Shown: positions 14,257 through 59,493 of the stretch, one piece after another
Numbering within the stretch: the stretch's first letter is position 1
Layout: the number at the start of each line of letters is the position of its first letter
Source of the DNA: a virus
Taxonomy: Duplodnaviria > Heunggongvirae > Uroviricota > Caudoviricetes
Strand: one strand, 5' to 3'
Virus record (IMG/VR): IMGVR_UViG_3300033463_000062
Location: 26,109 to 90,108 of that record
Length of the DNA: 64,000 bases
Position numbers and translations under genes: made by a program
The notes under the pieces: model-generated
Database searches by the model: none
Told to the model about the DNA's origin: nothing
The model's input: the letters and a program-made list of their open reading frames with translations, nothing else

Positions 14257-14281
14257 TCGGGAGGGCATTCAGCCCTCCCCC
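14257..14281 (+). promoter_or_regulatory. GC-rich inverted repeat (GGGAGGGC-ATTC-AGCCCTCCC) immediately 3' of VR; candidate DGR target-recognition hairpin/cruciform
   Basis: perfect 8-bp GC stem with 4-nt loop starting 1 nt after target gene stop; no T-tract so not a typical terminator; analogous elements flank VR in characterised DGRs. Confidence 0.5.
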
Positions 14282-14296
14282 AACGAGGAATAAACT

Positions 14297-14773
14297 ATGG
14301 CTCAAAGAGTTGATGAAAGAGACCCAACAAGGGTAGAGTTAGACTGCTATAACAAAATATTAAAATTAAACGATCATGTGATGAGCGTTTGTAAACCGAA
14401 AGACAAAAATGTCAACAATCATCACATACCGAAAAAGAATACTGGCATCGGTAAAATACTTATGGAAACGTGCGTTGAGTGCGGCGCGGATATACTTGAA
14501 GCGAACGAGAACTTTTACGTAGGCAAGAATATTGACCGCAAAACGAGACTTGCAAACTATGAAGAAAGAATAAAGCTCCAAAAACACGCTATCCGCTTAA
14601 CGTATCGTATGGAACATATAGTACGGGTTCTCCATTTTAATCAGCCGTTCGCGGAAAGTACGATAAAGTATTTAATGGACTTGCTTTGCGAAGCAAGAGC
14701 GATGTTGATTAACTGGAGAGATTCGGATATTAAAATGTCAAAGCAACTCGCTGACGAAATAAAAGGCGAGTGA
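14297..14773 (+). CDS. DGR accessory variability determinant (Avd)-like protein
   Basis: 158-aa basic, predicted helical ORF located between VR and TR, the canonical position of avd in target-avd-TR-RT cassettes. Confidence 0.5.
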   Translation: MAQRVDERDPTRVELDCYNKILKLNDHVMSVCKPKDKNVNNHHIPKKNTGIGKILMETCVECGADILEANENFYVGKNIDRKTRLANYEERIKLQKHAIRLTYRMEHIVRVLHFNQPFAESTIKYLMDLLCEARAMLINWRDSDIKMSKQLADEIKGE

Positions 14774-14828
14774 TTTGAAGGCTCATTGTTGATGATGTGA
14801 GTGGGGCAAGTTGTTTGCATTTCTCTGT

Positions 14829-14942
14829 GTCTCGTTCGGCTAACACTTCCAACGCCAACAACGCAAGGAACGTCACATCTACTGGCACTAATGACAACAA
14901 CAACGCGAACAACGCGAACTACGTCGCTCCCGATTTTATTTC
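14829..14942 (+). repeat. DGR template repeat (TR)
   Basis: non-coding copy of VR, contains 9 AAC triplets in the VR reading frame; lies 54 nt upstream of RT start. Confidence 0.85.
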
Positions 14943-14995
14943 CATATATTCGTATGACCTGATGTTAGTAGCCGCAAATTATAAGGTGAAAACCC

Positions 14996-16051
14996 GTGTC
15001 GATAAATGAAAATAAAAGGAACAATGAACCTGCCGAAAGGCAAATAGAAGCCGCGGACGAACGATCCGTGTGCGGGCTTAACGCCCTGTTGGCTGCGGAA
15101 ACGAGAGCGCATCGCCACGTAGGCTATAAAAACAGCGTCTCCCGTTTCCATATGCTGACAATGTCTAAATGCAACGCTCTGTCGAACAGTTTGAAGGATA
15201 GAACATATCAGCCGAAGAAGGGCGAAATGCACGAAGTGTTTGAGCCTAAATACAGGATGACAATATCTTCCAAATATTGCGACAGGGTGCCGCAATCCAG
15301 TTTTGTAATCAATTACTTTTATCCCAAAGTCGTGAGCCAACTCATTCCGCATAATTGTGCTTGCATGAAAAACAAGGGTGTTGACTATGCGAGAAACGAG
15401 TTTAAGAAAATGCTCCGTAATGCGTCTTATGACGATTATTGTCTTAAAGCGGATATGAAAAGTTACTTTGCTTCTATTCGTCACGACAAACTTACAGAAG
15501 AACTCGGAGAGTTTATAACTGACGATTTTGCCATGTGGTTCTTTCTGAAAACGGTTGATAATACCAATAAACCAACCGGGCTTGATTTGGGCAGCGAGGT
15601 TTATCAGTTATCGGCTACAAGTTTTCTCAACAAGTTAGACCACGCGATAGGAAACGAACAGTATATTCGCTATCAAGACGACCTTGTATTTATAGGCACA
15701 CACGAGCAATGTCTGCAAATTCTGTCGATGATAGAGCAGGAGACGGAAAGGCTGAACCTTACAATTTCAAGAAAGAAAACGTATATTCAGTCGGTGTCAA
15801 GACCTATACACTTTTTGGGGTTTAGTTTTTGGAAACATGAAACAGGAAAGATCACAGTCAAAAGACTGCCGCAGAAAATTCGCAACGAGCGGAGAAAACT
15901 GCGCCATATGGTGAACAAAAATGTTCCCATAGAAAATGTAAAAATCCATTATCAATCGGTTAGAGCGTGTTTAAAATACGGAGCAAGAGCCGACTTGACT
16001 AAAATGGACAACTATATCAATAAATTATTCGGAGGAATAAAAAATGGTTGA
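14996..16051 (+). CDS. DGR reverse transcriptase
   Basis: 351 aa; RT motifs including GLDLGSEVYQLSA (DGR-type LGxxxSQ-like motif 4) and YQDD catalytic box; adjacent to TR. Confidence 0.85.
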   Translation: MSINENKRNNEPAERQIEAADERSVCGLNALLAAETRAHRHVGYKNSVSRFHMLTMSKCNALSNSLKDRTYQPKKGEMHEVFEPKYRMTISSKYCDRVPQSSFVINYFYPKVVSQLIPHNCACMKNKGVDYARNEFKKMLRNASYDDYCLKADMKSYFASIRHDKLTEELGEFITDDFAMWFFLKTVDNTNKPTGLDLGSEVYQLSATSFLNKLDHAIGNEQYIRYQDDLVFIGTHEQCLQILSMIEQETERLNLTISRKKTYIQSVSRPIHFLGFSFWKHETGKITVKRLPQKIRNERRKLRHMVNKNVPIENVKIHYQSVRACLKYGARADLTKMDNYINKLFGGIKNG

Positions 16052-18083: not shown

Positions 18084-19292
18084 TCATTCGCCGTCGGTAT
18101 TTTTGTAGTTATATACAGGACGTATTTTCTTTAGGATTTCCACGGTTGGTTCGATATTATCTACGATATCTGACATTGATTTGTATGCCATTGGCGATTC
18201 ATCTAACGTGTTAAAGCACACAGACGTGCTATACACTTTTGACATTCTTTCCTTGTATTCGTCAAGTGAAAGAGACTGCTTCGCGCTGCTCCTGCTTAAA
18301 ATCCTTCCGGCGCCATGTGGTGCCGAGCAGTTCCAATCGGGATTTCCTTTGCCTCGGCAAATCAGACTACCTTCTGCCATATTTATGGGTATAAGCAGAA
18401 TCTCTCCATTGTGTGCAGATACGGCTCCTTTGCGTAATACGTTGTCGTGAATATAATTGTGTCTCGTGGTGAATATGCTTATAGGATCAAACCCCATGTG
18501 GCTTCTGATTATTTCAAACATATCGTATCTATTTTCGTCAGCATAGTCCTGCACAATTTCCATATCGTGTAGATAATCGCGCATATCGTTTCCTGTAAGA
18601 TATGCCAACTCTCGTTGTACTTTTGGCTTTTCTGAATGATAACGCTTAAGCGTGCCTTCAATTTCAGATTGACGCCCCTCTTTCTTGAGCTGTTCGATAA
18701 TTGCTTTGATTTCGTTATATTTGACATCGTCATTAAGGCGTCTATACGCCAAATCCTGATAGTATTCGCACACCTGTTTCCCGAGATATCTGCTGCCAGA
18801 GTGTATAACGAGATATTTTGCTCCATTGTCGTCTTCGTCAACTTCGATAAAGTGGTTTCCGCCGCCTAAGGTTCCGAGTGATAGCATCGCACGGTCGAGA
18901 TTTATGCTATCTTTGCATATTAAATTTTCAAGTATCTTTCTGAAGTGTTGAGAGCGTTCGTAAACTTCGTTTCTGATGTTCATACCTGACGGAATATGTT
19001 GTCTGATCGTCTCGTCGAGTTTTTTAAAGTAGATTTCAGTTGTGTTTAACCCAACTGTCAGCATACCGCATCCGATATCAACTCCGACTAAGTTGGGGAC
19101 AACGTAGTCGTGTATTGTCATAGTTGTTCCTATCGTGCAGCCTGCCCCTGCGTGAATGTCGGGCATCATTCGAATTTTTGAATCTTTAACGAACGGCTGA
19201 TTCAGCAAATTCAGCACCTGTTTTATAGACTCCTCATCAACGCAGTCTGTAAAGATTTTTGCGTTGTTGTATTTTCCTGTAAGTTCTAACAT
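18084..19292 (-). CDS. rtcB: RtcB-family RNA 3'-phosphate/5'-OH ligase
   Basis: 402 aa with MPDIHAGAGC, GGNHF and HGAGR motifs characteristic of RtcB metal/GMP-binding sites. Confidence 0.8.
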   Translation of the reverse strand: MLELTGKYNNAKIFTDCVDEESIKQVLNLLNQPFVKDSKIRMMPDIHAGAGCTIGTTMTIHDYVVPNLVGVDIGCGMLTVGLNTTEIYFKKLDETIRQHIPSGMNIRNEVYERSQHFRKILENLICKDSINLDRAMLSLGTLGGGNHFIEVDEDDNGAKYLVIHSGSRYLGKQVCEYYQDLAYRRLNDDVKYNEIKAIIEQLKKEGRQSEIEGTLKRYHSEKPKVQRELAYLTGNDMRDYLHDMEIVQDYADENRYDMFEIIRSHMGFDPISIFTTRHNYIHDNVLRKGAVSAHNGEILLIPINMAEGSLICRGKGNPDWNCSAPHGAGRILSRSSAKQSLSLDEYKERMSKVYSTSVCFNTLDESPMAYKSMSDIVDNIEPTVEILKKIRPVYNYKNTDGE

Positions 19293-19488
19293 TAGAAGCC
19301 TCCGGTTCTATTTGATTTGAGCGAACAACGCGGATGCTGCGGCTTGCCGCGACCCCTTTGTTTATTAAACTTGCCTGATTGCAAGTTTAATGAAAATTTT
19401 CCTACGTCACATTGCTATAGTTCCGATAAAACCGAAACCAGACTTTCGTCTAATCATTTGCCATTCGCGTTGTCGCTCATTTACCTAC

Positions 19489-19788
19489 TTATTCGGTAGG
19501 TATTTTTTCTATCTCGTGTTTGAGATAAAACATTGCTTTGCTTAAATCTTCTTTCTTCTTTTTGGGGTCTTTCTTCCCTGCTCTCGAGATATATTTCGCA
19601 ACATTCCCGAGGCAGAAGTCCAGTCCCCAAGCGTCAATAACTTTGATTGCTTCATACGGATTGTCCTCCCCGCCGTAATATGACGGGTGATCAACCGCGT
19701 TGGATGTTCCGAACATCGGTGTTTCATAAATCGTTCCCACATTGGGCTCGTCTATAGTCGCGTTGTCCGATAATACTCCGTTATCCAT
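19489..19788 (-). CDS. DUF3310-like small phage protein
   Basis: 99 aa with HPSYYGG...IDAWGLDFCLGNVAKYISRAGKK signature typical of this conserved phage family; start may be internal Met (19716). Confidence 0.5.
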   Translation of the reverse strand: MDNGVLSDNATIDEPNVGTIYETPMFGTSNAVDHPSYYGGEDNPYEAIKVIDAWGLDFCLGNVAKYISRAGKKDPKKKKEDLSKAMFYLKHEIEKIPTE

Positions 19789-22700
19789 TTCTCATACTCT
19801 CCTTCGATTGGTAAGTATTTTCCATTGTTTTGTCTTTCAGACTTTTGTTTTCGCTCAAAATCTGAGATGTGAATTATGTCTCCGACCGCAACAGGGTAGT
19901 CTTCGAACGCCGTGTGAACTCTGCTATATGTACCTTTTCGCGCCCTGTGAATTCTGAAATCCTCTTGTTTGCCGGACTTCAAACTGTAGAGCTTCACGGT
20001 TGGCGAATACATTGTTTTGTCGGCATTACTGTCAACTATCAGAGCGTCGCGTGGGTCTGCGTCTTTGTCGGAGTACAGGACGAACCCGAGGATATCAAGC
20101 TGCGTATGTATTACGTCCACGGGGTCTAAATCCTGAACTTTCAGCATCGAGCAGAGGAACCCAAACAACCCTTCGCCGTCGATGTTCCTGAACTGCTTGG
20201 CGGTCTCCTTTGAAAATCGTATCATTATCTCCGGCGGATAAGGGCATTTCTCTTTGTCGAACTGTGAGCGTTTACGGATGTCCATAAGCTCCATTATCTT
20301 CAGGAGCGTCCAGGACTTTCCGTACTCGCTGAACATTCCGAGCGTAATCATTGTCTTTACCTGCGGCTCGCTGATTCCATTTTCAAAACATAATTCAATG
20401 CACTCAATGAGTGTGCTTGGCTGCTTATCTGCAACTATTTTTAGTGCAGTTGCCACGCCGGTGCCGAAACCTTTGAACGCTGATAAGCCGATGTGAATTT
20501 GTCCGTCTTTGTAGTACGTTCTATCCTTTGCGGTTCTCCAGTCGTCCAGTACGACGCTCACGCCCATTCGTCTCGCCTCTTTAACTGTCTTTGCGATATC
20601 CTCAACCTTTTCATAGGAGTTTATCATTCCCGTGAAGAATTCGCCAGTATGATGAACTTTGAGATACATCGCTATATATGCGGTCAGAGCGTATGCGGTG
20701 GAGTGGGAGTTACAGACAAGCAGTCCCGTGCCGGTGACGAAGTTGTGAGCAGGAGCGCTCATCTCAACGTCGTATGTCATTTCCATTGTCTCGTACTTTA
20801 TCGAGGCAACTCTCGAGAGTTTATACCTACCGTCTTCAGTGCGGTAAGTATATAGGATGTCTCCTACAGACAACTCGTCGGCGCGTTTGATTCCGTTGAT
20901 AGTCGGTATCTTGTGGTTTGGCGTACAATCGACGTAGCATCCGTTGTTTGTCGTTATACGGTAGAGATAGCGGACACCAGATTCCGTGATATTTACAACC
21001 TTATTCGGTTTCACTTTGCCTGCACGGAATTTTGACAAAGCGAATTCAGGAATTTTACTGTTGTCTGCGCACATCTCTTCGACCGTTGCCGACAGACTTC
21101 CGTCGGGTAACATCAATCGTGTGTCGCCTCTTACGCATTTATTGAACGAATATTTCGCGAAATCAATTATGTTGTCCCACAATGTATCGACCTGTTCCTG
21201 CGTCCAACCGCGAGCCATTAAACCGTTCTTCAGTTCTGGTTCGATTTTCGCCATAAGGTCTTTCTTCTTCTTGGCGGTGGCTTTTCTCAATTCGTCAGGA
21301 TTGCGCAGCTTTGCAAGCCTACCGATTTCTATGAGCTGCTCTTGGAACACTATGACGCCGTATGTATTTGAAAGTATCGGCTTGAGATCGTCGTGTAAAT
21401 ACGTGATTTTCTCTTTGCCATTCTTTCTGTTTACGAAGTCTGGGATGTAACTGTTGGAGCCGGGGCGGTACAATGCGTTCGCTGCTGAGAGCGTTTCTAT
21501 CGAATCGCAGTGCATGTCGCGCAATGTACGCTTCATTCCGCTTGACTCAAACTGGAAGATACAGTCGGTATTGCCTTGTTCAAATTCGTTCCACACGTCT
21601 TTGTCGTGCAGGTCAAGTTTGGTAGGCGTTATGTAACTGTAGTCTTTTCCTATCATTTCCAGAGTATCATAAATAGCATCGAGTGTTCTTAAACCGAGCA
21701 GGTCGATTTTAACGAGCCCGAGATCTTCTGCCGAGTGCATATCGCCTTGCAAAACCCAAGTGTCTTTGTCTTCGTTATATTCAATCGCATTGTAATACTC
21801 TGCCGGTTGAATACAGACGCAGACTCCGCACGGGTGTACTCCGAACGATTTAGGCAGTCCTGATAGAGCAGATGCGTATCTGAACAGTTCGGGATATTTG
21901 TCTTTATACTTGTCGAATATACCGAGTTCAAGCGCTTCTTCTATCGTGGCGTTGCTGTTGACTTGGTCGAGTGTCTTCGTCATTTCGTTCGTCACATCGA
22001 ATGGAATGTTCAGAACTCTGCCTATGTCTTTAATCGCACCTTTCGCCCAGATGTACGAGAACTGCCCGAGGTTTACAACTCGTTCGTTACCGTATCTGCC
22101 TACAATAAATTGCAGGACTTTATCTCTTTCGCTTGGACTAAAGTCCAAATCAAAATCCGGGACTTTGAGTTCTTTTTTCGTTATCGAGCCCTCGTGCAAC
22201 AAGTCGAGAGCTCCAACGTCAATAAATCGCTCGAAGTATAGTTTGTACTTGACAGGGTCGACGTCCACTATGTTGCATAAATATGCAAGCAAGCTCCCTG
22301 CGCCGCTACCTCTCGCAAGCCCTCGACGTTTCACAGAATTTCCGTAGCTATATACCAAGAGATAATAGCCAATGAAGCCCATTTCGTCAATAGCGTTCAT
22401 TTCATATTTAGCTCTTTGGATATAGATATTGCGGTAATCTTTTGCAGTCTTGCAATCCGGCGGGATAACGTCCGAGCCTTCGGGAAGATCGCTGAAGTAG
22501 TTCTGCCATTGCTCAATCGTCCAATTTTTAAAACCTTTCTTCTCGAAGCCCTTGTTGCAGAGGTCTTGCAGATACGCTTTCTCGGATTTATACCCGTCAG
22601 GAATATCTACGTGAGGCATTATCGGAGCAGACAGAGGTATCGTGTTTGTGCATTTGTCAGCGATTTTGTGGGTATTTTGTATTGCAATGTCGTTATATTT

Positions 22701-23438
22701 TCGTGTCATCCAACACAACTCTTTGACTTCGTCTTCGGACTGTATATAACAGTCGTCGTAAGTCTCGCCCGCTTCCCGCTGAGTTCCTATCTGCACGAAC
22801 ATATCGTGATACTTCTGGTCTTCTTTATTCAGGTAGTGTGCGTCTGCCGTAACCACGTATTCGATGCCGAGTTCTGTTGCAAGCTCTATTACGGCTTTGT
22901 TCAGCCTCTGTTGTTCGTCGTTCCGGTGCGATTGATATTCCAAATAATAATCATCTTGGAAGAGATTTTTGTATTTAGTTGCAATTATCTTCGCTCCAGA
23001 GACGTCTCCAACTGCAAGCGCTCTTTGTACTTCTCCCGCCATACAAGCCGACAAGCAAATCAGCCCTTCGTGATGTTCTGTCAACATATTGAAGTCTATT
23101 CTCGGCTTGCCATAGTATTTGTGCTTGCTCGACTCGCTTACAAGCCAGTTAAGGTTTTGTCTGCCGGTCTCGTTCTTTGCGAGGAGGATAAGGTGATAAT
23201 ATTTGTTGTCTTTGTCGTTTACGTTTGCATCGGTGCAGATATAAACTTCACTTCCGTTTATCACCTTAATCCCCTCTTTGCCGAGGACTGACAGAGCTTC
23301 AACGGCGGCATATAGGTTGCCGTGGTCTGTTATGGCTATTGTGTCCTGCCCGAGCTCCTTCAGTTTTTCAGCGAGAGCCGGAAACTTTATCATTGCGTCG
23401 AGCAGGCTATATATCGAGTGAACGTGCAGATGTATCAT
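19752..23438 (-). CDS. dnaE: DNA polymerase III alpha subunit (DnaE-type replicative polymerase) containing a mini-intein
   Basis: 1228 aa; N-terminal PHP domain (HLHVHSIYSLLD); conserved DnaE motif YSFNK...SHSTAYA split by a 143-aa insert. Confidence 0.85.
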   Translation of the reverse strand: MIHLHVHSIYSLLDAMIKFPALAEKLKELGQDTIAITDHGNLYAAVEALSVLGKEGIKVINGSEVYICTDANVNDKDNKYYHLILLAKNETGRQNLNWLVSESSKHKYYGKPRIDFNMLTEHHEGLICLSACMAGEVQRALAVGDVSGAKIIATKYKNLFQDDYYLEYQSHRNDEQQRLNKAVIELATELGIEYVVTADAHYLNKEDQKYHDMFVQIGTQREAGETYDDCYIQSEDEVKELCWMTRKYNDIAIQNTHKIADKCTNTIPLSAPIMPHVDIPDGYKSEKAYLQDLCNKGFEKKGFKNWTIEQWQNYFSDLPEGSDVIPPDCKTAKDYRNIYIQRAKYEMNAIDEMGFIGYYLLVYSYGNSVKRRGLARGSGAGSLLAYLCNIVDVDPVKYKLYFERFIDVGALDLLHEGSITKKELKVPDFDLDFSPSERDKVLQFIVGRYGNERVVNLGQFSYIWAKGAIKDIGRVLNIPFDVTNEMTKTLDQVNSNATIEEALELGIFDKYKDKYPELFRYASALSGLPKSFGVHPCGVCVCIQPAEYYNAIEYNEDKDTWVLQGDMHSAEDLGLVKIDLLGLRTLDAIYDTLEMIGKDYSYITPTKLDLHDKDVWNEFEQGNTDCIFQFESSGMKRTLRDMHCDSIETLSAANALYRPGSNSYIPDFVNRKNGKEKITYLHDDLKPILSNTYGVIVFQEQLIEIGRLAKLRNPDELRKATAKKKKDLMAKIEPELKNGLMARGWTQEQVDTLWDNIIDFAKYSFNKCVRGDTRLMLPDGSLSATVEEMCADNSKIPEFALSKFRAGKVKPNKVVNITESGVRYLYRITTNNGCYVDCTPNHKIPTINGIKRADELSVGDILYTYRTEDGRYKLSRVASIKYETMEMTYDVEMSAPAHNFVTGTGLLVCNSHSTAYALTAYIAMYLKVHHTGEFFTGMINSYEKVEDIAKTVKEARRMGVSVVLDDWRTAKDRTYYKDGQIHIGLSAFKGFGTGVATALKIVADKQPSTLIECIELCFENGISEPQVKTMITLGMFSEYGKSWTLLKIMELMDIRKRSQFDKEKCPYPPEIMIRFSKETAKQFRNIDGEGLFGFLCSMLKVQDLDPVDVIHTQLDILGFVLYSDKDADPRDALIVDSNADKTMYSPTVKLYSLKSGKQEDFRIHRARKGTYSRVHTAFEDYPVAVGDIIHISDFERKQKSERQNNGKYLPIEGEYEKWITEYYRTTRL
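20709..21137 (-). other. mini-intein inserted in DnaE (residues 768-910)
   Basis: insert begins CVRGDTRLML (block A), has TPNH (block B), ends ...APAHNFVTGTGLLVCN with +1 Ser (blocks F/G); flanks restore the canonical FNK|SHS DnaE motif; no homing endonuclease domain. Confidence 0.75.
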
Positions 23439-42316: not shown

Positions 42317-42741
42317 TTGTCATTTCCAAGCAACACAGCGATACTCCCCCGGTTTGACTCTAATTCCGCTTTTGACACACGAGGTGTCCGCATCATAACA
42401 AGGGTCTGTTGCTGTAACCGGCGTTTCGTCGTAATATCTTGTTCCGACTTCTATAGGTTTTAGCTTCATTTTGTTCTCCTTTGCATAAATTCGTTTATCA
42501 TAATCCTGTTTGTAATAAGCGGGGATGCGCCACTGCTTCCAGCGATGTTCTACCGCTACTTTGTCTTCACTCCCAACTGTTTCTCTGATGTCTTGCGTGT
42601 CTTTCTTGTGTTTTTTACCTCTTTTTCCACCATGATTGGTGTCATTTTTGCACCTTTTCCCCCTTTTTTAACGCGATTTCTTACCCGAAGCTTACTTTGC
42701 AACGCGCGTGCCAGACAGCTGGTCTTCCCGGGGTGTTCTTT

Positions 42742-42805
42742 TCGTCCTAACATTTTTATACGTCCGATAATACCGAACGCTTGGTTTCACCAAAATGCGA
42801 TTATG
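42742..42805 (-). repeat. conserved two-hairpin intergenic element, copy A
   Basis: 12 nt after stop of 42814..43116; minus-strand form AATCGCATTTTGG-UGAAA-CCAAGCGTTCGGTATTATCGGACGTATAAAAATGTTAGGACGA. Confidence 0.7.
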
Positions 42806-42813
42806 ATTTTAAA

Positions 42814-44913: not shown

Positions 44914-45186
44914 ATCGTTCTCCTCTAATGTAATCCAATAAAAGTGTGCTACAGCAGTTACTACCGATGTATTGGACTCAATTAACTCCGCCTACACCGC
45001 TCTGTGTGTTTCGTTTGTCAAAGTTTCTCGAATCTTTTTTTCCTTTTTTCTTTTCAAAGTCTTGATTTCTTGTACTCATTGTCGGTATTTCTTCTGCGTT
45101 TTAGCCAATTCTGACAGTTCTTTGCGATTTCTGTATCTATTTTGGCAACTGTTGCTATGTGCCCATAGTCTCCTCAGCTCGATCTG

Positions 45187-45250
45187 TCGTCCTAACATTG
45201 CGGTGCGTCCGATAAAACCGAACGCTCAACTTGCGTTGAAATACGATTAC
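45187..45250 (-). repeat. conserved two-hairpin intergenic element, copy B
   Basis: begins at stop of 45263..45784; hairpin 1 is CAAC-GCAA-GTTG. Confidence 0.7.
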
Positions 45251-45262
45251 ATTATAAAATGG

Positions 45263-51032: not shown

Positions 51033-51303
51033 TCCCTACTGTTTTATAAAGCGTTTCTAACGCTTCGATTTCTGATTTTGATAACCTCACAGGATTTCCG
51101 TCGATTGCTTCTCCGAGCTGGCTCAAAGCGTCGTTCCACGACATATCCCTTGCGTTTTCCAAGTCGTACACGGCGTAGTACGGCTCGTCAATCCACGTCT
51201 TTTCGTAAACAAGAAACCAACAGTCTGTTTTTGTATTTCTTGTCGCGTGTTCCAACGCGGTGTACTGTTCGTCTGATAATGTCATTGAATGAATTTTGTT
51301 CAT
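51001..51303 (-). CDS. hypothetical protein
   Basis: 100 aa, RBS AAGGAGGAGAACGATG. Confidence 0.4.
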   Translation of the reverse strand: MNKIHSMTLSDEQYTALEHATRNTKTDCWFLVYEKTWIDEPYYAVYDLENARDMSWNDALSQLGEAIDGNPVRLSKSEIEALETLYKTVGIEFPEGEWYA

Positions 51304-51529
51304 CGTTCTCCTCCTTTTTATTTTTACACAATCCTAAGTTATAGATGGCGCCTTGACCAAGGAGTCCTCCTCGTCATCGAGATGCCTCGGTAATCACGTT
51401 TTTATACCTCTTTAGGGGGTCGTTTTTCACATTTTTTCAATTTATATACCCTTAATTTGAGGTTTCACCATCAGGATTACTTCCATCTCGGACTGCAGCA
51501 TCCTTCGGATCCTGATACCTGCTCCTTCT

Positions 51530-51593
51530 TCGTTCTAACATTTTTATACGTTCGATAAGACCGAACGCTTGCGTTTCCGCAAAATACGATTGT
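51530..51593 (-). repeat. conserved two-hairpin intergenic element, copy C (directly after recombinase stop)
   Basis: minus-strand form CACAATCGTATTTTGCG-GAAA-CGCAAGCGTTCGGTCTTATCGAACGTATAAAAATGTTAGAACGA. Confidence 0.75.
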
Positions 51594-51598
51594 GTTTC

Positions 51599-52585
51599 TT
51601 ATTTGTTAAGCTCATTCAAGAGCTCGTCTTTCGTTTGTAGTAATAATTCGTACAGCTCGTTGTTTGATACAACCTTAGGAGCCACAAGTTCATCGCCGTC
51701 CCACTTTCCAAGCGTAAAGTTGGACACCGCTTTCCTCGCTTCGTCGCACTGTTCTTTCATAATGCCAAGATACCGGCTCGTTGTCGTTGCGTTCTCGTGA
51801 TTTAACAACGTCTGAATTACCGCAAAATTCTTCTCGTTGATTGACGCGTCGTAAGTGCACTCAATAACCTTGACGAAAGTCTTTCTCATAGAGTGCGTTC
51901 CGAGGTGGGCTTCAATCCCGAGCGCTTTCTGCGCTGCAGTTAATATCTTGTAATACGCTTTCTCCGTGATGTGCTCGCCGCTTCTCTTGGTCTGGAATAC
52001 ATAGTCATTCAGGATTATTCCCTCGGGAAACAACTCGTTGACATATTCTTCCATAGCGGTCTTTATCGCCTCGGTTATCAGCGCATTGTTAATCTTTGTC
52101 GTTTTTTTCTCGAGCACCGGTATTCTCTCGCGGAACTCGTAGTCGTTGTTGTAAATGTGATAGAATTTCAAGCGAACGATGTCTGACGCTCTGACGCCGA
52201 GGTTACAACCGACCATCCACATTGTAGCGTTACGGATACCCTCAGGAGTTTTTTCCTTGAGCCAGTCATAAACACGCTTGAAGTCCGTGTATGAATTGAT
52301 TGCCTCAGATGCGGATGCAAGTTTCCGTCCGTTGACGTTAACACCGCTCAACATTCGTTCAGTTTTTTCTGCGTTCTCCTTGTCTCTTTTACCCTGACGT
52401 TCTTCTTTCGTCAAGACTTTTTTGTATTGACCGTTGTCGATTGCGTCAACCAACTCCTGATACTTTAACTCATAAGTCAGCTGCTTTCTCTTAGCTTTTT
52501 CGAGTTCTTTTTCGAGGTAGTCGATTTGTATCTGGCGTTCCATTGCAATCTGCTGCCAGTCAACCATTACCCTTGTTTCTTCCAT
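51599..52585 (-). CDS. tyrosine recombinase / integrase family protein
   Basis: C-terminal catalytic region with HSMRKTF (HxxR) and NATTTSRYLG (catalytic Tyr); R...K...HxxR...Y pattern. Confidence 0.65.
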   Translation of the reverse strand: MEETRVMVDWQQIAMERQIQIDYLEKELEKAKRKQLTYELKYQELVDAIDNGQYKKVLTKEERQGKRDKENAEKTERMLSGVNVNGRKLASASEAINSYTDFKRVYDWLKEKTPEGIRNATMWMVGCNLGVRASDIVRLKFYHIYNNDYEFRERIPVLEKKTTKINNALITEAIKTAMEEYVNELFPEGIILNDYVFQTKRSGEHITEKAYYKILTAAQKALGIEAHLGTHSMRKTFVKVIECTYDASINEKNFAVIQTLLNHENATTTSRYLGIMKEQCDEARKAVSNFTLGKWDGDELVAPKVVSNNELYELLLQTKDELLNELNK

Positions 52586-52970
52586 TTCGATCCCTCCGTA
52601 TTCCTTTGTACTAAAACATTTCTTCTGTGCCCTCTTGCGTCTAATATAATCAAACGCGTCTTGCCGACCATATTTAGTCTGCTTAGGTATCTTTTCAATA
52701 CTTAAGGGAAGACTATGAATTGTTCACACAATCCTATGAGAATAAAAACGGTTCTGCCCACAGGGTGCCGGCATCCAACTTTGTTTGGACATTGTTCGAT
52801 TGTGTCCATTTCCTACGCTTAATTGGGAAATCTTTTTTAACTTTTTACTTCTTTGAGGTTCGTTTTTCTTGATTTCCACCCTTTCTTCATTGCGACGGTT
52901 GCTCTCGAATCTTCATTCCCCGTGTGACCCCAGACGACGTTCTTGAGATCCTGATCTGCCTCCTGATCTC

Positions 52971-53035
52971 TCGTCCTAACATTTTTGTACGTTCGATAAG
53001 ACCGAACGCTCAGCTCTTGCTGAAATACGATTGTG
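52971..53035 (-). repeat. conserved two-hairpin intergenic element, copy D (upstream of recombinase, after stop of 53039..53266)
   Basis: hairpin 1 CAGC-AAGA-GCTG, hairpin 2 CGTTCGGTCTTATCGAACG. Confidence 0.75.
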
Positions 53036-53038
53036 CTT

Positions 53039-53266
53039 TTATCTTTGGACAAACTCGCAAATCTCACCCGTCTCAGGATTGTAAAGCTCTCCCGAGAACA
53101 TAAGCGGGACGTTGTATGCAAGTCTGCATTCTTTCCTGATACGATATTTTAAATTGGCGACTGCTTTTCGCGGCGTTTCCGCAAGTGTTGTTGCAACGTA
53201 GTTGTTACGCGTAATCAATGTTCCGTCACGCTCAACTCGTCCTGTAAACACCCATTTTTCTTTCAT
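53039..53266 (-). CDS. hypothetical protein
   Basis: 75 aa. Confidence 0.4.
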   Translation of the reverse strand: MKEKWVFTGRVERDGTLITRNNYVATTLAETPRKAVANLKYRIRKECRLAYNVPLMFSGELYNPETGEICEFVQR

Positions 53267-53362
53267 AAGTTACCTCCAATTGTGGTTCGAAAACTTAATC
53301 TCATGAGAAACTTCCATTCTGGAAGTTTCGCATCTGATTAAGTTTTGAACGATATTTGTTGT

Positions 53363-53412
53363 GTTTTACGTTCGGTAAAACCAAACGCCCGTTTTCTAAA
53401 CGAAATATTCGT
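53363..53412 (-). repeat. diverged copy F of the two-hairpin element (directly after RT stop)
   Basis: retains ACGTTCGGTAAAACCAAACG (hairpin 2 analogue) and CGTTT-AGA-AAACG (hairpin 1 analogue). Confidence 0.5.
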
Positions 53413-53418
53413 AACTTT

Positions 53419-54558
53419 TTATGCGCTCTTTATTGCGCTTATTATCGTGTCGTACACATTCTTGTTGAACTTCAACGACAGCTTATTCAGAATCTGTTCT
53501 ACGGCTTCCTTTTCAACCATTCTACAATAGTTCAGGTTGCCGAGCATTTCCTGCAACTCTCCGAGTTCCCATTTTTCTTCCTTTGCATCGGACATCATAA
53601 ACGAGAACAGCGTTGCTTTCAGGATCTTCTTTCTCTTATAGCCGACCGTAATGTTACCGTCTTTATTCAGCATAAGACCAAGGTTCCAGTTGCGACCTGC
53701 CGATGAACCGTATCTCGTCTTTTCTGCGTTCAGACTGAACGGCGTTTCCCATTTCGCAAGCGTGTTCTTGAGAAACGTCTGAACTTCCGTCCACTTAAAA
53801 TCATACTCGGAAGTTATTGTGATATCGTCTGCATATCTCGTATAGACGAGGTGCGGCGTGTGTTCGCGGCACCAACGCGCTATCTCGAGGTCGAGCGGTA
53901 TCATCATGATGTTAGTTATCATCGGGCTAATCGGACTGCCCTGCGGAAGTCTGCCCTGATACATACATATATCCAGAGCCTTCTCGAAATACTCTTTGCC
54001 TTTTACAGAAGTTAATATCTCGTTGTACGGATATATCATTGAAAACATTTTCAAAACAAATTCTTTCGTGGTGTTCGGGAAGAACTTGGAGAAGTCAAAC
54101 TTAGCAAACCACCTCGAGTGGTTGCTCTGATGACGTTGCATCGCGTATAGACAACATCTATGCGGAACGTATGCAAAGGCACAAGTATGATACGGTGCGC
54201 CGATTATATTCTCGAATATAAACTTGAGTTGACGCTGCGCGTTCTTCAGTTCTTCGTCAGGCTTATCTATCTGTCTGTGTCCACCAGACTTCTTCGGTAT
54301 ATTGTACGGATGATAATGACTGTCGATTCCGCTCTCGAACAGTTCTTTGTGGTTTTCGATGAAGTTGTGGAGCGCGTCCACCATCTTTGTCAACTTCAGA
54401 TTCGCTAACATTCTTATCGGAATTTCTTCCGTCGTGAATGTTACTGTGTCGTATGTGTTTCTGTCGGGCATTAGAGCCGACTCTGTGACGCCGTTGATTA
54501 CGTCCCAAGCAGTTATCTGCTTTTCGCGCTGCTTTTTTGCATAAGTGATATAATACAT
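53419..54558 (-). CDS. reverse transcriptase (non-DGR; retron/group-II-like RT domain without maturase or RNase H)
   Basis: 379 aa; motifs SGGHRQIDKP, RLPQGSPISPMITN, YTRYADDITI (YADD box). Confidence 0.8.
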   Translation of the reverse strand: MYYITYAKKQREKQITAWDVINGVTESALMPDRNTYDTVTFTTEEIPIRMLANLKLTKMVDALHNFIENHKELFESGIDSHYHPYNIPKKSGGHRQIDKPDEELKNAQRQLKFIFENIIGAPYHTCAFAYVPHRCCLYAMQRHQSNHSRWFAKFDFSKFFPNTTKEFVLKMFSMIYPYNEILTSVKGKEYFEKALDICMYQGRLPQGSPISPMITNIMMIPLDLEIARWCREHTPHLVYTRYADDITITSEYDFKWTEVQTFLKNTLAKWETPFSLNAEKTRYGSSAGRNWNLGLMLNKDGNITVGYKRKKILKATLFSFMMSDAKEEKWELGELQEMLGNLNYCRMVEKEAVEQILNKLSLKFNKNVYDTIISAIKSA

Positions 54559-54811
54559 TTTCCCTTTTCCTTTCTTTACCTATCCTATGAGGTTTTGAAT
54601 GCCCCTTCAAGCTTCTGAAGTTGATGTCTGGCACTCGTGTCGAGATAAATTTTTATTAAAATTAGAACTTTTTTGGATTATCTTCGCCAACTTTATTTTT
54701 TTAATTGGGAATCTAACTTCACTTTCTGGTTTTGTTTTGCCATTTTTTCTTGCGCAATGCCTCTGCACCTGTTGCTGCGTCACCAGCTCTGACTCCTCGT
54801 CCCAGTCCTCT

Positions 54812-54875
54812 TCGTTCTAACTTTGTGTTGCATCCGATAAGACCGAATGCTTTGCTTTCGCAAAAATGCGATAGG
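54812..54875 (-). repeat. conserved two-hairpin intergenic element, copy E (between RNase H and RT)
   Basis: hairpin 1 TTTGC-GAAA-GCAAA; hairpin 2 GCATTCGGTCTTATCGGATGC with a compensatory G-C to A-T change relative to other copies. Confidence 0.7.
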
Positions 54876-54876
54876 T

Positions 54877-55305
54877 TTATAATGTTTGTCCTGTTGCGAG
54901 GAAATCGCATCTTTCGTTGTACTGATTTCCCGCGTGTCCCTTCGTCCATTCAAACGTCACATTGTGAATGTCGAGGATATTCAAAAGTTCTTCCCACAAA
55001 TCTGCGTTCGCTGCGGGTTTGTTGTCTTTTTTGTACCAGCCGCGTTCTTTCCACGACTGTACCCAGCCCTTTCCGATTCCGTCAACAACGTACTTACTGT
55101 CCGTTATCAGCTTGACCGAACACGGTCTGTTCAGAGCGTTCAGCGCGTTGATGACCGCCGCGAGTTCCATACGGTTATTCGTCGTGTCTTCTTCGGCTCC
55201 GAAGATCTCCTTGACTTTATCTCCATATTTCAGTACGGCTGCCCAACCGCCCTTGCCGGGATTTCCCGAGCAGGCTCCGTCGGTATAAATCTCCACGTTT
55301 GTCAT
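54877..55305 (-). CDS. rnhA: ribonuclease HI
   Basis: 142 aa; [10 protein letters not shown]...E...D...[11 protein letters not shown] catalytic DEDD-type RNase H signature. Confidence 0.8.
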
Positions 55306-56042
55306 AACTCGTCAATCCTGAACTGGAATGGGTTTACGTAAATCATTCTTTTCAGTTCTCCTTTCTTTACAAAATTTATAAAGTTGCAAACTCCTACGTT
55401 GCAAACTTCTCTCACCGTTGGTGCGACTCCGAGAACAACTCCGCACGCAGACACCGGTGTTGCTTCCGCAGCTTCTTCGTGAGAATAGTTCATCGTCTTG
55501 AGATAGTTTATGACGTCTTTCATCTTGCCCCACTCGGAAGCGTAATGCATAGCGTCCTCAAGCCGTGTTCTGAAATCAAACACCGCTTTTATTTCTGTGT
55601 TATATTTGTTTGCCTCGCAAATTTCTCTGCGCAGGTCTATATTGTCAACCGCAAGGAACACATATCCGTTGAGCGGTTGTTCTGTATACTTGCCCAGAAC
55701 TTCAACCTCGACCTCGGGGTTGATGTCTTCAAGCATTTTCTTCACCTCTGTCGCTTTGTCCTCTCCGACCGAATGCGAGAAGAACATCTGATTGGCGATA
55801 TTGTGTTCTTCCACAAGGTCGAAATCATACAGAGAAAATTTCCTTACTCCGAGCCTCGCAAGATTTTCTGCGAGCGTTGAGCCAACGGAACCGCATCCGA
55901 TTATGTGACACGTTCCGTCAACTTTTTCAGGGGCAAAGTATTCGTAGCTCTTCTGTAAGTTCATAACCTTCGTCCTCCCATTCTCTTTCGCGCAGATACC
56001 ATAACTCTGCGTGCGCCGTCTCAGCTTCTTCTTCGTCGCCAT
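55302..56042 (-). CDS. E1-like (ThiF/MoeB family) adenylating enzyme
   Basis: Rossmann GxGxxG (IIGCGSVGS), [14 protein letters not shown] motif of ThiF/MoeB/E1, downstream Cys (VSACGVV); likely start at internal Met MNLQK (55964), overlapping JAB gene. Confidence 0.7.
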
Positions 56043-56634
56043 ATAACAGGATTGGCAGGAGTTTCACTGCTTTTTCATACGGCGACATTTCTATCATTTC
56101 TATCGTTCGCTTCGGTATAAACGGTTTGACAAGTTCTTTGGCGTTCTTTAAGAACTCTGTCGTATCATATTCTCCGGTCGTGTCGAACTCCACGTCAACC
56201 TCTTTGTTCACGTAGAGTTTGCCGTTCTTTATGTCGTTTATCTGAACTGTAAACTTACCGCTTTTGTTGAATATCATAAAGACGTAGAACACGTCGTCAA
56301 CAAACTCGGCTTTCGGAAGATTTTTCAAAATGTTCTCCCGATATGTCATATCAAAACCCGAGGGGGTTGGCGTCATGTTCACATGAGAATGACCGTGCAT
56401 TCTCAATGCGTTGAACTGTTCATCCGGTAGAGTGTCGAGCCACGCTTCGTACTCTTTCTGGTCGCTCTCTACGTAGGCTCCGGAAGCCTTGTGTGGAAAA
56501 ACAAGTATGTCTTCCACAACAAAACCGTCATCAGTTCTGTTAACAATACCGTGCCATTCGACCTCGGTATCGAATCCCGCAAGCAGTGCGGCAGTCTTTT
56601 TAAATGCTTTTGCATTAAATTTAAGACTCGGCAT
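55927..56634 (-). CDS. JAB/JAMM-family metalloprotease (deubiquitinase-like)
   Basis: exact JAMM motif H-x-H-x7-S-x2-D in MHGHSHVNMTPTPSGFD, preceded by conserved Glu. Confidence 0.7.
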   Translation of the reverse strand: MPSLKFNAKAFKKTAALLAGFDTEVEWHGIVNRTDDGFVVEDILVFPHKASGAYVESDQKEYEAWLDTLPDEQFNALRMHGHSHVNMTPTPSGFDMTYRENILKNLPKAEFVDDVFYVFMIFNKSGKFTVQINDIKNGKLYVNKEVDVEFDTTGEYDTTEFLKNAKELVKPFIPKRTIEMIEMSPYEKAVKLLPILLYGDEEEAETAHAELWYLREREWEDEGYELTEELRILCP

Positions 56635-57904
56635 TGGATTGTTCCTCCTTGTTTATTATTTTCACGAGCTCGCCCGGAGTGATGATTGAACCGTCGGGCA
56701 TTAAAATACACCTCTTATTGCTTCTCATACTCGTTATGAACTGCCTCATCGCCGCGCTGTCGTCAATGTTGATGTTTCTCGTTGCAGCGATTGCCTGTTC
56801 AATTCCCATGTCCCATTCTCCGGCGGCATTATAGTTGTTGAGCTCCGCCGCATTTGTTCCGAGGCATCCGAAGGCTATCAAGTGCGGATGCGAAATTGCG
56901 TTCATGTCGTCTTCAGCCGCGCCTTGTACCACTCTTACGACACCTTCTTTGGTTATCAAAAACCTCGAATACACTTTGATTTTTGCCTTTTTATTTACCA
57001 AGCAATACTTGAGAACTTTTCTCAATTCGGGGCTTGCGCTGCCGAGAATGGTGTTCGGATTGTCTATATAGCGTCCTATTTTGTCGCTATAGTTCTGGAT
57101 AGTTTCGCTTATCGTGAACGTGATGTCATCAGAACTGTATGTTGATATCCGCAACTGTTTATGTTGCTTGAAGAATTTAGCCAGATCTGAGCTATCTCCG
57201 TGAGAACCGAGAGATATCGCTCTGACGGCTTCCTGAAGAGACCGGAGGTTTTCATACTTGGCAGTCAATTGTGATGTCAATTCATAAATCTCGTCATTCA
57301 GATTGGCAATCTGACTCTCGAGATGATTGTATGTTGTCAAACTTGGGTCGATTTTGAATGCCGCAAATGCCTGATTCGCGACCTTTTCCTCAAGATTTCC
57401 GAGCTTTCTGTCAACCAGAGCATTCGTTATCTCGATGATTTTTCCCTCATCTTTTGCAATCAGGGCGTTGATGAACGCCTTGTCTTCTTCGTCGAGAGGG
57501 GTGGGGGAGAGCCACGGAACTAACTGCGGATACACGGTGATTAAGTCCATCGCAGCCTTGTTGTCGCGGTGGTTATAATGATCGCCCGTCATGAATATCT
57601 GTGTCTGTTGCTGATCATTGTTGCGGAGAACGACTACGTTATTCCCGCAGAATTTCCTAAGATATTGCTCTATAGGCGCACTTGCGGTATTCAGCCTCTC
57701 CCAGCCGTCGTAAACGCCAGTCGGCGCTTGCATATACCTGAATTGAATGTATCCGCTGTAATTGTCGGATACCAGCGATTTTGTTGGCTTGATGTCGTTT
57801 TTGATATATAAATACCTACCGACAATCGTATAAACATTGCTTAAACTCGAGCGTGCTGCATAGTCTCTATCAAGCAAATGACTTAAGATTTTTATGTCCA
57901 TCAA
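56621..57904 (-). CDS. hypothetical protein with possible C-terminal E2-like motif
   Basis: 427 aa; C-terminal SHPHLIAFGCLG resembles E2 HPN-x8-Cys active-site signature; first gene pair of operon with Ubl-like ORF. Confidence 0.4.
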   Translation of the reverse strand: MMDIKILSHLLDRDYAARSSLSNVYTIVGRYLYIKNDIKPTKSLVSDNYSGYIQFRYMQAPTGVYDGWERLNTASAPIEQYLRKFCGNNVVVLRNNDQQQTQIFMTGDHYNHRDNKAAMDLITVYPQLVPWLSPTPLDEEDKAFINALIAKDEGKIIEITNALVDRKLGNLEEKVANQAFAAFKIDPSLTTYNHLESQIANLNDEIYELTSQLTAKYENLRSLQEAVRAISLGSHGDSSDLAKFFKQHKQLRISTYSSDDITFTISETIQNYSDKIGRYIDNPNTILGSASPELRKVLKYCLVNKKAKIKVYSRFLITKEGVVRVVQGAAEDDMNAISHPHLIAFGCLGTNAAELNNYNAAGEWDMGIEQAIAATRNINIDDSAAMRQFITSMRSNKRCILMPDGSIITPGELVKIINKEEQSNAES

Positions 57905-57935
57905 CTCTCCTCCTTTCTGTTTTATTTATCTCGTC

Positions 57936-58172
57936 TCAGGCTCCGTCGCCCTTAACGACTGATGCGAGAACCACGTCCTCGTCTTCTTCTACGCCGAGTT
58001 CGGCGAATGTCTTGTCGAAATCTCCGTCATCGAGAACCACGCCGCAAAGCGTTACCTGATTTCTCGTGGACGGTGTGATACCGAAACCAGCGAATACGCT
58101 GCTCGGCGTTGAATTTATATCCTCAACGATCTGCTTACGGATATTGTTTGTTTTAAACGTGATCGAAATCAT
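57936..58172 (-). CDS. small beta-grasp/ubiquitin-like candidate protein
   Basis: 78 aa, MISITFKT... start and acidic region resembling ubiquitin-fold proteins; C-terminus KGDGA (no free GG). Confidence 0.3.
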   Translation of the reverse strand: MISITFKTNNIRKQIVEDINSTPSSVFAGFGITPSTRNQVTLCGVVLDDGDFDKTFAELGVEEDEDVVLASVVKGDGA

Positions 58173-59232: not shown

Positions 59233-59318
59233 TTGGCAGGAGTTGCAGGATTTGAACCTGCGAATCTTCGGACAAAGCCGGAGTGTTTCCGAATGTGTTA
59301 ACCGCTTCACCAAACTCC
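59233..59318 (-). tRNA. tRNA-like element 1 (86 nt, perfect acceptor and T-arm, encoded CCA, non-canonical anticodon region)
   Basis: minus strand AGGAGTT/AACTCCT 7-bp acceptor, D-arm GTG-AAGCGGTTAA-CAC, T-arm GCAGG-TTCAAAT-CCTGC, then G-CCA; central region forms CGGA-AACAC-TCCG hairpin rather than a 7-nt anticodon loop. Confidence 0.4.
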
Positions 59319-59493
59319 TATATGGCGGGCTTAAGGTCACCCGAATCCGCACATCCGATTATGCACAATGTGATAACGGTGCACCTCCACATCGTGCGCT
59401 GACCCAATCGGCGTGACGTCAGTTTGTACTGTCCTCTGAATAGCTAATTCAGAAACTGCATACACTTTTCGTCAGTTTTGCTCGTAACGGCAC

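Follow-up and report, generated by a model that had tools for sequence, protein, structure and literature searches.

The window analysed here is a stretch of 64,000 nucleotides (nt) from a Caudoviricetes virus (IMG/VR record IMGVR_UViG_3300033463_000062, positions 26,109 to 90,108). On its minus strand it encodes a reverse transcriptase (RT) between two intergenic spacers, and each spacer holds a copy of the same structured element, named E upstream and F downstream of the RT. A stand-alone RNase HI gene lies immediately upstream, giving the order RNase H, element E, RT, element F (Table 1). A preliminary description of the locus, made from the sequence letters, had already noted this order, the LPQGSPISP and YADD motifs of the RT and the presence of a second, unrelated RT; all of these observations hold. 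It had also described the RT as free of fused domains, and profile searches indeed find no fused maturase, endonuclease or RNase H domain. By profile and predicted fold the RT is retron-type, not group II, diversity-generating retroelement (DGR) or defence-associated RT (DRT), and the elements constitute a new, strongly covarying structured RNA family of which hundreds of copies are detected. Together they may form a phage-borne retron-like reverse-transcription system, in which an RT from the core gene set of the phage would use multicopy template RNAs; judged from sequence, the chances for and against this are about even.

Table 1. Genes, spacers and element copies in the window. Element coordinates are taken from arm positions; scores are from the covariance model and, for E, F and J, also from the iterated model. 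ORF, open reading frame; aa, amino acids.
Feature	Position	Strand	Remarks
Ubiquitin-like (Ubl) ORF, 78 aa	57936–58172	-	First gene of the Ubl-E2-JAB-E1 operon (55302–58172)
E2-like protein, 427 aa	56621–57904	-	Invariant HPH..C.G in alignment
JAB/JAMM protein, 235 aa	55927–56634	-	JAMM motif HSHx7SxxD readable in translation
ThiF/E1 protein	55302–56042	-	Pfam ThiF 73 bits; PADLOC E1-E2 models
RNase HI, 142 aa, stand-alone	54877–55305	-	Pfam RNase_H, NCBIfam ribonuclease HI
RNase H-RT spacer, 318 nt	54559–54876	-	Holds element E
Element E, long type, 299 nt	54578–54876	-	Fills the RNase H-RT spacer; 83 and 65 bits
Retron-type RT, 379 aa	53419–54558	-	RLPQGSPISP and YTRYADD motifs
Spacer 3′ of RT, 152 nt	53267–53418	-	Holds element F
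Element F, short type, 151 nt	53267–53417	-	Directly after RT stop codon; 25–35 bits, E 4e-4 to 1.5e-5
75-aa ORF	53039–53266	-	Start ATG adjoins 3′ arm of element F
Spacer between 75-aa ORF and integrase, 453 nt		-	Holds element F2
Element F2, long type	52727–53035	-	3′ of 75-aa ORF, 5′ of integrase gene; 83 bits
Tyrosine integrase	51599–52585	-	
Element G, long type	51326–51595	-	3′ of integrase gene; 86 bits
Element H, long type	44926–45254	-	81 bits
Element I, long type	42497–42807	-	80 bits
Element J, short, divergent	19319–19478	-	5′ of RtcB gene (18084–19292); 24–27 bits

The RT matches Pfam RVT_1 at 75 bits. The catalytic aspartates D155, D244 and D245 are invariant across the family, and so is the motif Y242-A-D-D245. 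Among profiles of retron, Abi, DRT/UG and group II RTs, the retron models are the best. In PADLOC, RT_II-A ranks first with 180 bits over the full length, and every one of the top 25 models is a retron RT. NCBIfam ranks retron_St85_RT first (192 bits); the retron Ec67 and TIR models give 123 and 109 bits, below their cut-offs of 450 and 600. When the family profile is compared with PDB sequences, the 12 best matches are retron RTs (Ec83, Ec78, Ec67, Kva2, and Ec86; E-values 3e-36 to 5e-18), behind which the group II RTs rank, and DRT E-values are only 1e-6. The AlphaFold (AF2) model of the RT has a pLDDT of 90, and its top 11 Foldseek matches in PDB are retron RTs with TM-scores of 0.69–0.82. 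Identity to the Ec86 RT is 25% over fingers, palm, and thumb. The earlier assignment to a retron or group II lineage is thus narrowed to its retron half, on which PADLOC, NCBIfam, the PDB profile search and Foldseek agree.

It could be argued that the RT comes from another kind of system, such as a group II intron, an accessory of a DGR, or a defence RT of Abi, DRT2 or DRT9 type that works without a template or by rolling circle, and that the flanking elements are unrelated to it. NCBIfam gives weak matches to group II RT/maturase (83 bits, cut-off 300), Drt2 (45 bits, cut-off 390), and Drt3a (32 bits, cut-off 200), none of which reaches its cut-off. The long-range helix that closes the elements around a template of ~230 nt also resembles, superficially, the DRT2 noncoding RNA (ncRNA). 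However, the retron models exceed group II by ~100 bits and DRT by more, and the fold search puts 11 retron RTs first. Rfam searches matched no group II intron RNA families, either in the whole window at the gathering threshold or in 51200–55000 at an E-value threshold, and the two flanking RNAs are homologues of one another, which the halves of an intron would not be. Since the element interiors are not conserved, they cannot encode a Neo-like product. A DGR is present elsewhere in the window (12328–16051, plus strand), but it has its own RT, the second RT of the phage (14996–16051, RVT_1), 38 kb away. This RT adjoins a pair of 111-nt repeats resembling template and variable repeats (14121–14231, at the end of ORF 12328–14256, and 14829–14939; 82% identity), with a 158-aa ORF (14297–14773) between them. 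No such repeat is seen near 53–55 kb, and the substitutions in element interiors are not adenine-specific. An origin of the RT from one of these other systems is very improbable.

Retron RTs carry two signatures, NAxxH in region X and VTG in region Y, in which H and G are the most conserved residues (Mestre et al. 2020; PMC7736814). In the present family the equivalent of NAxxH is (D/Y)A(V/M)xRH: NNATPH of Ec86 aligns with YAMQRH of the window RT, and the family consensus is DAVKRH. The equivalent of VTG is NLG, inside an invariant NWNLG. What is retained is therefore only the H of NAxxH and the G of VTG, i.e., the two most conserved residues. In addition, the family has a specific N-terminal extension of ~75 aa that ordinary retron RTs do not have. 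Residues 1–75 contain invariant M1, Y3, T5, T38, and T40 and are confidently modelled as a small beta/alpha domain. Because these and other departures from retrons are substantial, the RT is described here as acting like a retron RT and is not placed in a defined retron type.

The covariance model finds seven copies of the element in the window, all on the minus (gene) strand, and zero chance matches are expected there from a pattern search. The copies share one order of parts: 5′ arm, G, hairpin 1, hairpin 2, single-stranded tail, variable interior, G, and 3′ arm. The 5′ arm begins 1–10 nt past the upstream stop codon. The 3′ arm is complementary to the 5′ arm, and reaches up to or into the Shine-Dalgarno sequence or ATG of the following gene. 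Hairpin 1 often has a GNRA-like loop. Hairpin 2 has an invariant C-G pair and a nearly invariant G·U closing pair, and the conserved tail reads GTAnCAnnnTGTyRGRA. The preliminary description had placed one copy after the RNase H gene and one after the RT. Elements E and F are indeed present in these two spacers, but these places are not special, since the window holds seven copies.

In element E the arms are ACCTATC/G...G/GATAGGT (slashes separate the arms from the flanking Gs), with the 5′ arm at 54876–54870, the Gs at 54869 and 54585, and the 3′ arm at 54584–54578. Hairpin 1 occupies ~54864–54851, hairpin 2 ~54850–54830, and the conserved tail extends to ~54809. Both hairpins and the closing helix reappear in the minimum free energy (MFE) fold, which has a z-score of −3.1, and the interior alone is unstructured (z −0.6). 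The spacer between RNase H and RT had been proposed as a template or ncRNA in which inverted repeats like those of retron msr/msd should be sought. Such repeats are present at its termini. Element E is, however, one member of a multicopy and dispersed family, and is therefore not a unique template. Elements F2 (CACAATC/G...G/GATTGTG, z −3.0) and G (ACACAATC/G...G/GATTGTGT, z −3.3) are alike in that their MFE folds recover the closing helix and both hairpins. The arms of element H are TAATGTAATC/G...G/GATTACATTA, with the 3′ arm abutting GAGGAG-ATG, and those of element I are ATCATAATC/G...G/GATTATGAT. The closing helix of element J is ~13 bp with one bulge (GAGCGACAACGCG...CGCGTTGTTCGCTC), and the G after its 5′ arm is ambiguous.

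In every computable respect, element F has the canonical layout of a retron ncRNA. Its arms are AAGTTAC (53417–53411), followed by G at 53410, and GTAACTT (53273–53267), preceded by G at 53274. Two small hairpins are followed by a near-perfect hairpin of ~28 bp at ~53350–53285. The energy of the whole fold is −51.6 kcal/mol, and the z-score of the interior is −8.9. Orthologues of F, likewise short, follow the RT stop codon in the related loci L001, L003, L004, L006, and L016 (relatives of the window are numbered with L); they have a long msd-like hairpin, with interior z-scores of −5 to −11. In L004 (7159–7755), L006 (7151–7439), and L016 (11172–11447) the short hairpin-type element is followed after a few nt by a long-type element, and the resulting order is RT, short element, long element, RNase H. 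The total span of the long copies is kept at about 250–350 nt. The consensus fold of the orthologous elements upstream of the RT supports the closing helix and the 5′ module only.

Rfam matched only tRNA in the whole window at the gathering threshold, with no retron msr or other relevant family, and gave chance-level matches only in 51200–55000 at the E-value threshold. The iterated covariance model gave 201 matches at E ≤ 0.1 in 91 sources (the window and 90 related loci), and a further 63 matches at E ≤ 0.01 in 58 additional loci. On the strand of the RT lie 263 of the 264 matches. In 30 ordinary retron loci and the Ec86 locus, the covariance model has no match. Across the element hairpins 93.6% of cells are paired, and compensatory changes are seen in 10 of 12 pairs. 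Of 72 unique copies, 52 have a G directly after the 5′ arm of the closing helix, against a G content of 12.8% there, and 54 have a G directly before the 3′ arm. When the model fixes the 5′ anchor, helices of 7 bp or more are found in 38 of 49 copies against 157 of 919 cross-locus controls. The covariation of the closing-helix arms is 0.93 against 0.21 in shuffles (0/500). As the 3′ arms were found by complementarity, the percentage paired is biased; this bias does not extend to how specific the arms are to each copy. An unconstrained best-helix statistic was too noisy (own mean 8.7 vs. null 7.7), and the anchored tests were used instead. The G·U pairs, together with the strand bias, indicate that the structure acts as sense-strand RNA. 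Hairpin 2 is alike among the copies of one genome, and shows compensatory differences between genomes. This uniformity within a genome fits one co-evolving trans-acting reader.

These facts bear on the idea that the elements work at the DNA level, as selfish or recombinogenic boundary repeats of exchangeable cassettes, similar to miniature inverted-repeat transposable elements (MITEs), integron attC sites, or linkers, perhaps with a tyrosine recombinase. The elements fill whole intergenic gaps between cassettes, and in the window an integrase gene is nearby. A clean loss is also seen in one relative. L176 (IMG/VR 3300045988_160459) and L174 (_145588) are 92–97% identical in their aligned flanks, and L176 is without ~1.5 kb holding the upstream element and the RT; it is the sole exception among 79 loci anchored on ThiF. 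The junction is a 45-nt overlap in the 5′ modules of the flanking elements, which indicates homologous recombination between direct repeats. On the other hand, the arms covary between copies and are not conserved recognition sites, the G·U pairs, including the closing pair of hairpin 2, work on the sense strand only, and all matches except one are on the gene strand. On the grounds of arm covariation, sense-strand G·U pairs, and strand bias the MITE or attC form of the idea was rejected. Even between phages with RTs of only 57–66% identity, copies occupy orthologous positions, so they are old and maintained. The integrase is not near the RT in most relatives. Boundary repeats are, on the whole, an improbable explanation of the elements.

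The interiors diverge fast, which could also be read in favour of boundary repeats. In 33 of 34 close pairs their identity is lower than that of RT third codon positions (median 0.78 vs. 0.92). Between L067 and L074, for example, the interior identity is 0.82, against 0.99 at four-fold sites; further examples are L017/18, L029/45, L037/44, L058/61, and the L067 and L080 groups. In close pairs the 5′ module and the last ~50 nt of the element are nearly identical. Hypermutation, diversifying selection, or mosaic recombination may be the cause. By our own calculation the excess divergence is ~22-fold in a recent pair and ~2-fold in older pairs, and the substitutions are mostly transitions of all kinds, not adenine-specific. 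Constant local hypermutation, either DGR-like or by feedback of the RT, was rejected because the rate excess is not constant and the substitutions are not A-specific. For the same two reasons at least part of the divergence is attributed to mosaic recombination, probably by exchange with breakpoints in the conserved modules.

The RT family comprises at least 561 IMG/VR loci, and assemblies of genomes and metagenome-assembled genomes hold at least 574 loci. In genome assemblies, full-length relatives (≥38% identity) are found only in contigs binned with Clostridia. The next assembly matches (≤33% identity) are ordinary retron RTs, which align only from about residue 75 on. A nucleotide search of GenBank phages with the 4.1-kb region found no close relative. 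The order Ubl, E2-like, JAB, ThiF, spacer of ~300 nt, and RT is kept down to 36% RT identity. The Ubl, E2-like, JAB, ThiF/E1 order is that of bacterial Bil-type systems, here encoded by a phage. In a neighbour search anchored on the ThiF alignment (the alignment of the 427-aa protein was too divergent for that use), 78 of 79 informative loci have the RT downstream of ThiF, at a distance of 0.3–3.4 kb. The ~300-nt spacer upstream of the RT has the same element architecture in every relative examined.

The positions of elements relative to the RT were compared in 63 IMG/VR loci with 10-kb flanks. Upstream of the RT, at a distance of at most 500 nt, 49 loci have 49 matches; just downstream of the RT stop codon, 41 loci have 52 matches. 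The remaining matches are 43 further downstream, 10 further upstream, and 3 inside the RT window. This distribution indicates that the conserved unit is element-RT-element, heading an array of element-bearing cassettes. The unit sits behind the Ubl-E2-JAB-E1 operon, and the bracketing of the RT extends over hundreds of related phages.

The RNase HI of the window scores 153 bits with Pfam RNase_H and 207 bits with NCBIfam PRK00203 (ribonuclease HI), over the equivalog cut-off of 160, and its DEDD/H residues are readable in the translation. Retron cDNA maturation is reported to depend on RNase H1 (PMC8989520). The combination of the RT with an RNase H in trans had been likened to retron or template-primed cDNA synthesis systems. 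The two genes are neighbours in the window, but the arrangement is not conserved: among 87 related IMG/VR loci, just 4 have an RNase HI gene at 10 kb or less from the RT, and the link is hence confined to a small subclade closest to the window. In some members (L004 and L006–L008) the RNase HI gene is downstream of the RT, behind its own element, not upstream.

What do the elements do? On the most economical reading, they serve a retron-derived RT as its cognate ncRNAs. An RT of the retron clade should require a neighbouring ncRNA that offers a G for priming, and the only conserved RNAs beside this RT fit that expectation. Every RT of the clade that has been studied relies on an ncRNA next to its gene (PMC7736814). 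No other conserved RNA was seen near the RT.

The following mechanism can be proposed. The RT would recognise the 5′ module of the element, i.e., hairpin 1, hairpin 2 with its conserved G·U closing pair, and the tail. The copy-specific closing helix, similar to the a2/a1 helix of retrons, would set the G after the 5′ arm beside the template end, just inside the 3′ arm. The 2′-OH of that G could then prime cDNA synthesis into the variable interior of the element. RNase H would strip the RNA of the hybrid, and in the subclade of the window the phage could supply its own RNase HI. Element F would yield a classical hairpin-type multicopy single-stranded DNA (msDNA) of ~70–80 nt, and element E and the five other copies would yield other, mostly unstructured single-stranded DNAs (ssDNAs). 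If several copies yield ssDNAs, one RT would serve several template loci. The binding of the elements by the RT, the G-primed cDNA, the use of distal copies as templates, and the role of RNase H are inferred.

It can be speculated further that this retron-derived RT, a core gene of widespread Clostridia phages, serves its dispersed templates to generate a set of ssDNAs during infection for the phage's own use. This extension is put forward only tentatively. The ssDNAs may be decoys or sponges against host immunity, may take part in superinfection exclusion, or may be intermediates of replication or recombination which make the interiors hypervariable; they may also act in concert with the ubiquitin-like conjugation operon. 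The findings suggest that phages themselves, and not only their hosts, use retron-style cDNA synthesis.

The alternative that deserves most discussion takes the elements for a general cis-regulatory RNA, read by another phage protein or the ribosome; the RT would merely lie behind one of them and use another template or none. A translational operator, stop-to-ribosome-binding-site coupling, an RNA processing site, and antitermination like that of nut or put were considered as roles. Copies precede unrelated genes, namely integrase, RtcB, small ORFs, and, in relatives, RNase H, as a general element of 5′ untranslated regions would. The arms are located at the upstream stop codon and at the Shine-Dalgarno sequence or ATG of the next gene, so translation could be coupled or gated by the closing helix. 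The long interiors lack both structure and conservation. The downstream skew of the matches would result from the array of element-bearing cassettes 3′ of the RT alone. The uniformity of hairpin 2 equally suits any phage-specific RNA-binding protein with its hairpin, as exemplified by N and boxB in lambdoid phages.

Cis-regulation, however, leaves unexplained the point-by-point likeness to a retron ncRNA beside a retron-type RT, and also the constraint of spacer length to 250–350 nt. The RT would moreover lack the adjacent ncRNA used by the retron-clade RTs studied to date. In a scan of 42–56 kb for sigma-70 promoters and intrinsic terminators, the counts were near the shuffled expectation, and no consistent site was seen in the elements. 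Hairpin 1 is not followed by a U tract, and its reading as a terminator was dropped. We regard a purely cis-regulatory role as possible but rather unlikely.

Several findings weigh against the proposal that the RT uses the elements as templates. We know of no retron in which one RT has several dispersed ncRNA copies. The RT family lacks the exact NAxxH and VTG sequences, and the score to retron_St85_RT stays under its cut-off of 235. No retron effector is found near the RT with PADLOC models, and none is otherwise recognisable. Most copies, E included, are long copies with interiors of 190–280 nt, whose z-scores are near 0 and which share no consensus fold. Element F, the best canonical copy, is located downstream of the RT, not upstream, and short hairpin-type copies are seen only in the subclade of the window. 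The scarcity of RNase HI near the RT in relatives and the occurrence of elements before unrelated genes point the same way. Finally, the RT may be dispensable, as L176 has lost it.

If cDNA is made from these elements, phages use retron chemistry for their own ends, reversing its usual role in host defence. The system would then be a natural retron with one RT and several templates, which is relevant to multiplexed retron editing, and would provide a new and compact pair of RT and ncRNA from Gram-positive gut phages. Should the RT play no part, the element is still a new covarying structured RNA family.

Other genes of the window are noted here. The RtcB RNA ligase gene lies directly behind element J, and genes for a KTI12/AAA_33 kinase-like protein and a metallophosphatase are found 3′ of the RT in the relatives L004 and L006. 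These genes suggest an RNA repair module in the phage family. A DNA polymerase III alpha gene, DnaE-like with a PHP domain (1228 aa; 19752–23438, minus strand), contains an intein splicing domain at residues 776–878. A tRNA-Arg(CCG) gene is located at 59234–59319 (minus strand), in an early or accessory region of the phage.

In the full-text literature we found no description of the RT family, its RNA element, or an RT linked to a phage Ubl/E1/JAB operon, and in the literature on phage retrons and multicopy ncRNA no prior description of the system. Retrons are bacterial anti-phage systems with one RT, one ncRNA, and one effector. The present system departs from them by its conserved phage gene, the absence of a recognisable effector, the multicopy RNA family, and the neighbouring Ubl operon.

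The closest comparison is with Ec86 (Retron-Eco1; type II-A, St85 family). Its ncRNA sequence is 100% identical in 48 E. coli genomes and reads TGCGCACCCTTA/G...G/TAAGGGTGCGCA at its ends. The geometry of arm, G, interior, G, and arm is identical to that of the elements. At the Ec86 locus the effector gene upstream ends in a stop codon that overlaps with both the 5′ arm and the branching G, which resembles the position of the upstream stop codon at the 5′ arm of the elements. Ec86 is located in a P2-like prophage, and is thus also carried on a phage genome. The lineage and fold of the RT are shared as well. More generally, the elements resemble retron ncRNAs in being adjacent to, and co-oriented with, the RT; their two small hairpins match the one to three hairpins of msr, and the long msd-like hairpin of element F completes a textbook msr-msd layout.

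The differences from retrons are also clear. The phage RT is without the exact NAxxH and VTG, and has the extra N-terminal domain. There are seven ncRNA-like copies per 64 kb instead of one, and copies lie on both sides of the RT. Most copies here have a long unstructured interior, whereas the msd of a canonical retron forms a long stable stem-loop. A recognisable effector is missing. The RT is a near-universal gene of a large Clostridia phage family (78 of 79 loci), not an accessory gene of defence islands. In one subclade the phage has its own RNase HI, which is a difference from retrons; the RNase H1 dependence of retron cDNA (PMC8989520) would be a likeness.

Retron-type RTs of lytic Staphylococcus jumbo, Klebsiella, Pseudomonas, and Vibrio phages are likewise phage-encoded members of the retron lineage with no known role. 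Such RTs have been annotated in lytic phages, e.g., Staphylococcus jumbo phages (bioRxiv 10.1101/2020.12.14.422802). They show only 25–29% identity to the window RT, align from about residues 64–82 on, and leave the N-terminal extension unmatched.

DRT2, of the UG/Abi class, consists of a single RT with an upstream structured ncRNA of ~300 nt, in which base pairing encloses the template of rolling-circle cDNA synthesis. A single RT with an upstream structured element of ~300 nt that encloses its interior by pairing is seen here, too. The similarity of the present RT to DRT2 in profile and fold is far weaker than that to retrons, the element interiors are neither conserved nor coding, and the copies are dispersed.

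The nut sites of lambdoid phages (boxA/boxB) and put of HK022 consist of one or more small hairpins and a single-stranded motif, are repeated across transcription units, and are phage-specific. The elements are similar to them as multicopy combinations of conserved hairpins and a single-stranded motif with a phage-specific sequence. They differ from nut and put in having the long-range closing helix with flanking Gs, the constraint on an interior of 250–350 nt, and the association with an RT.

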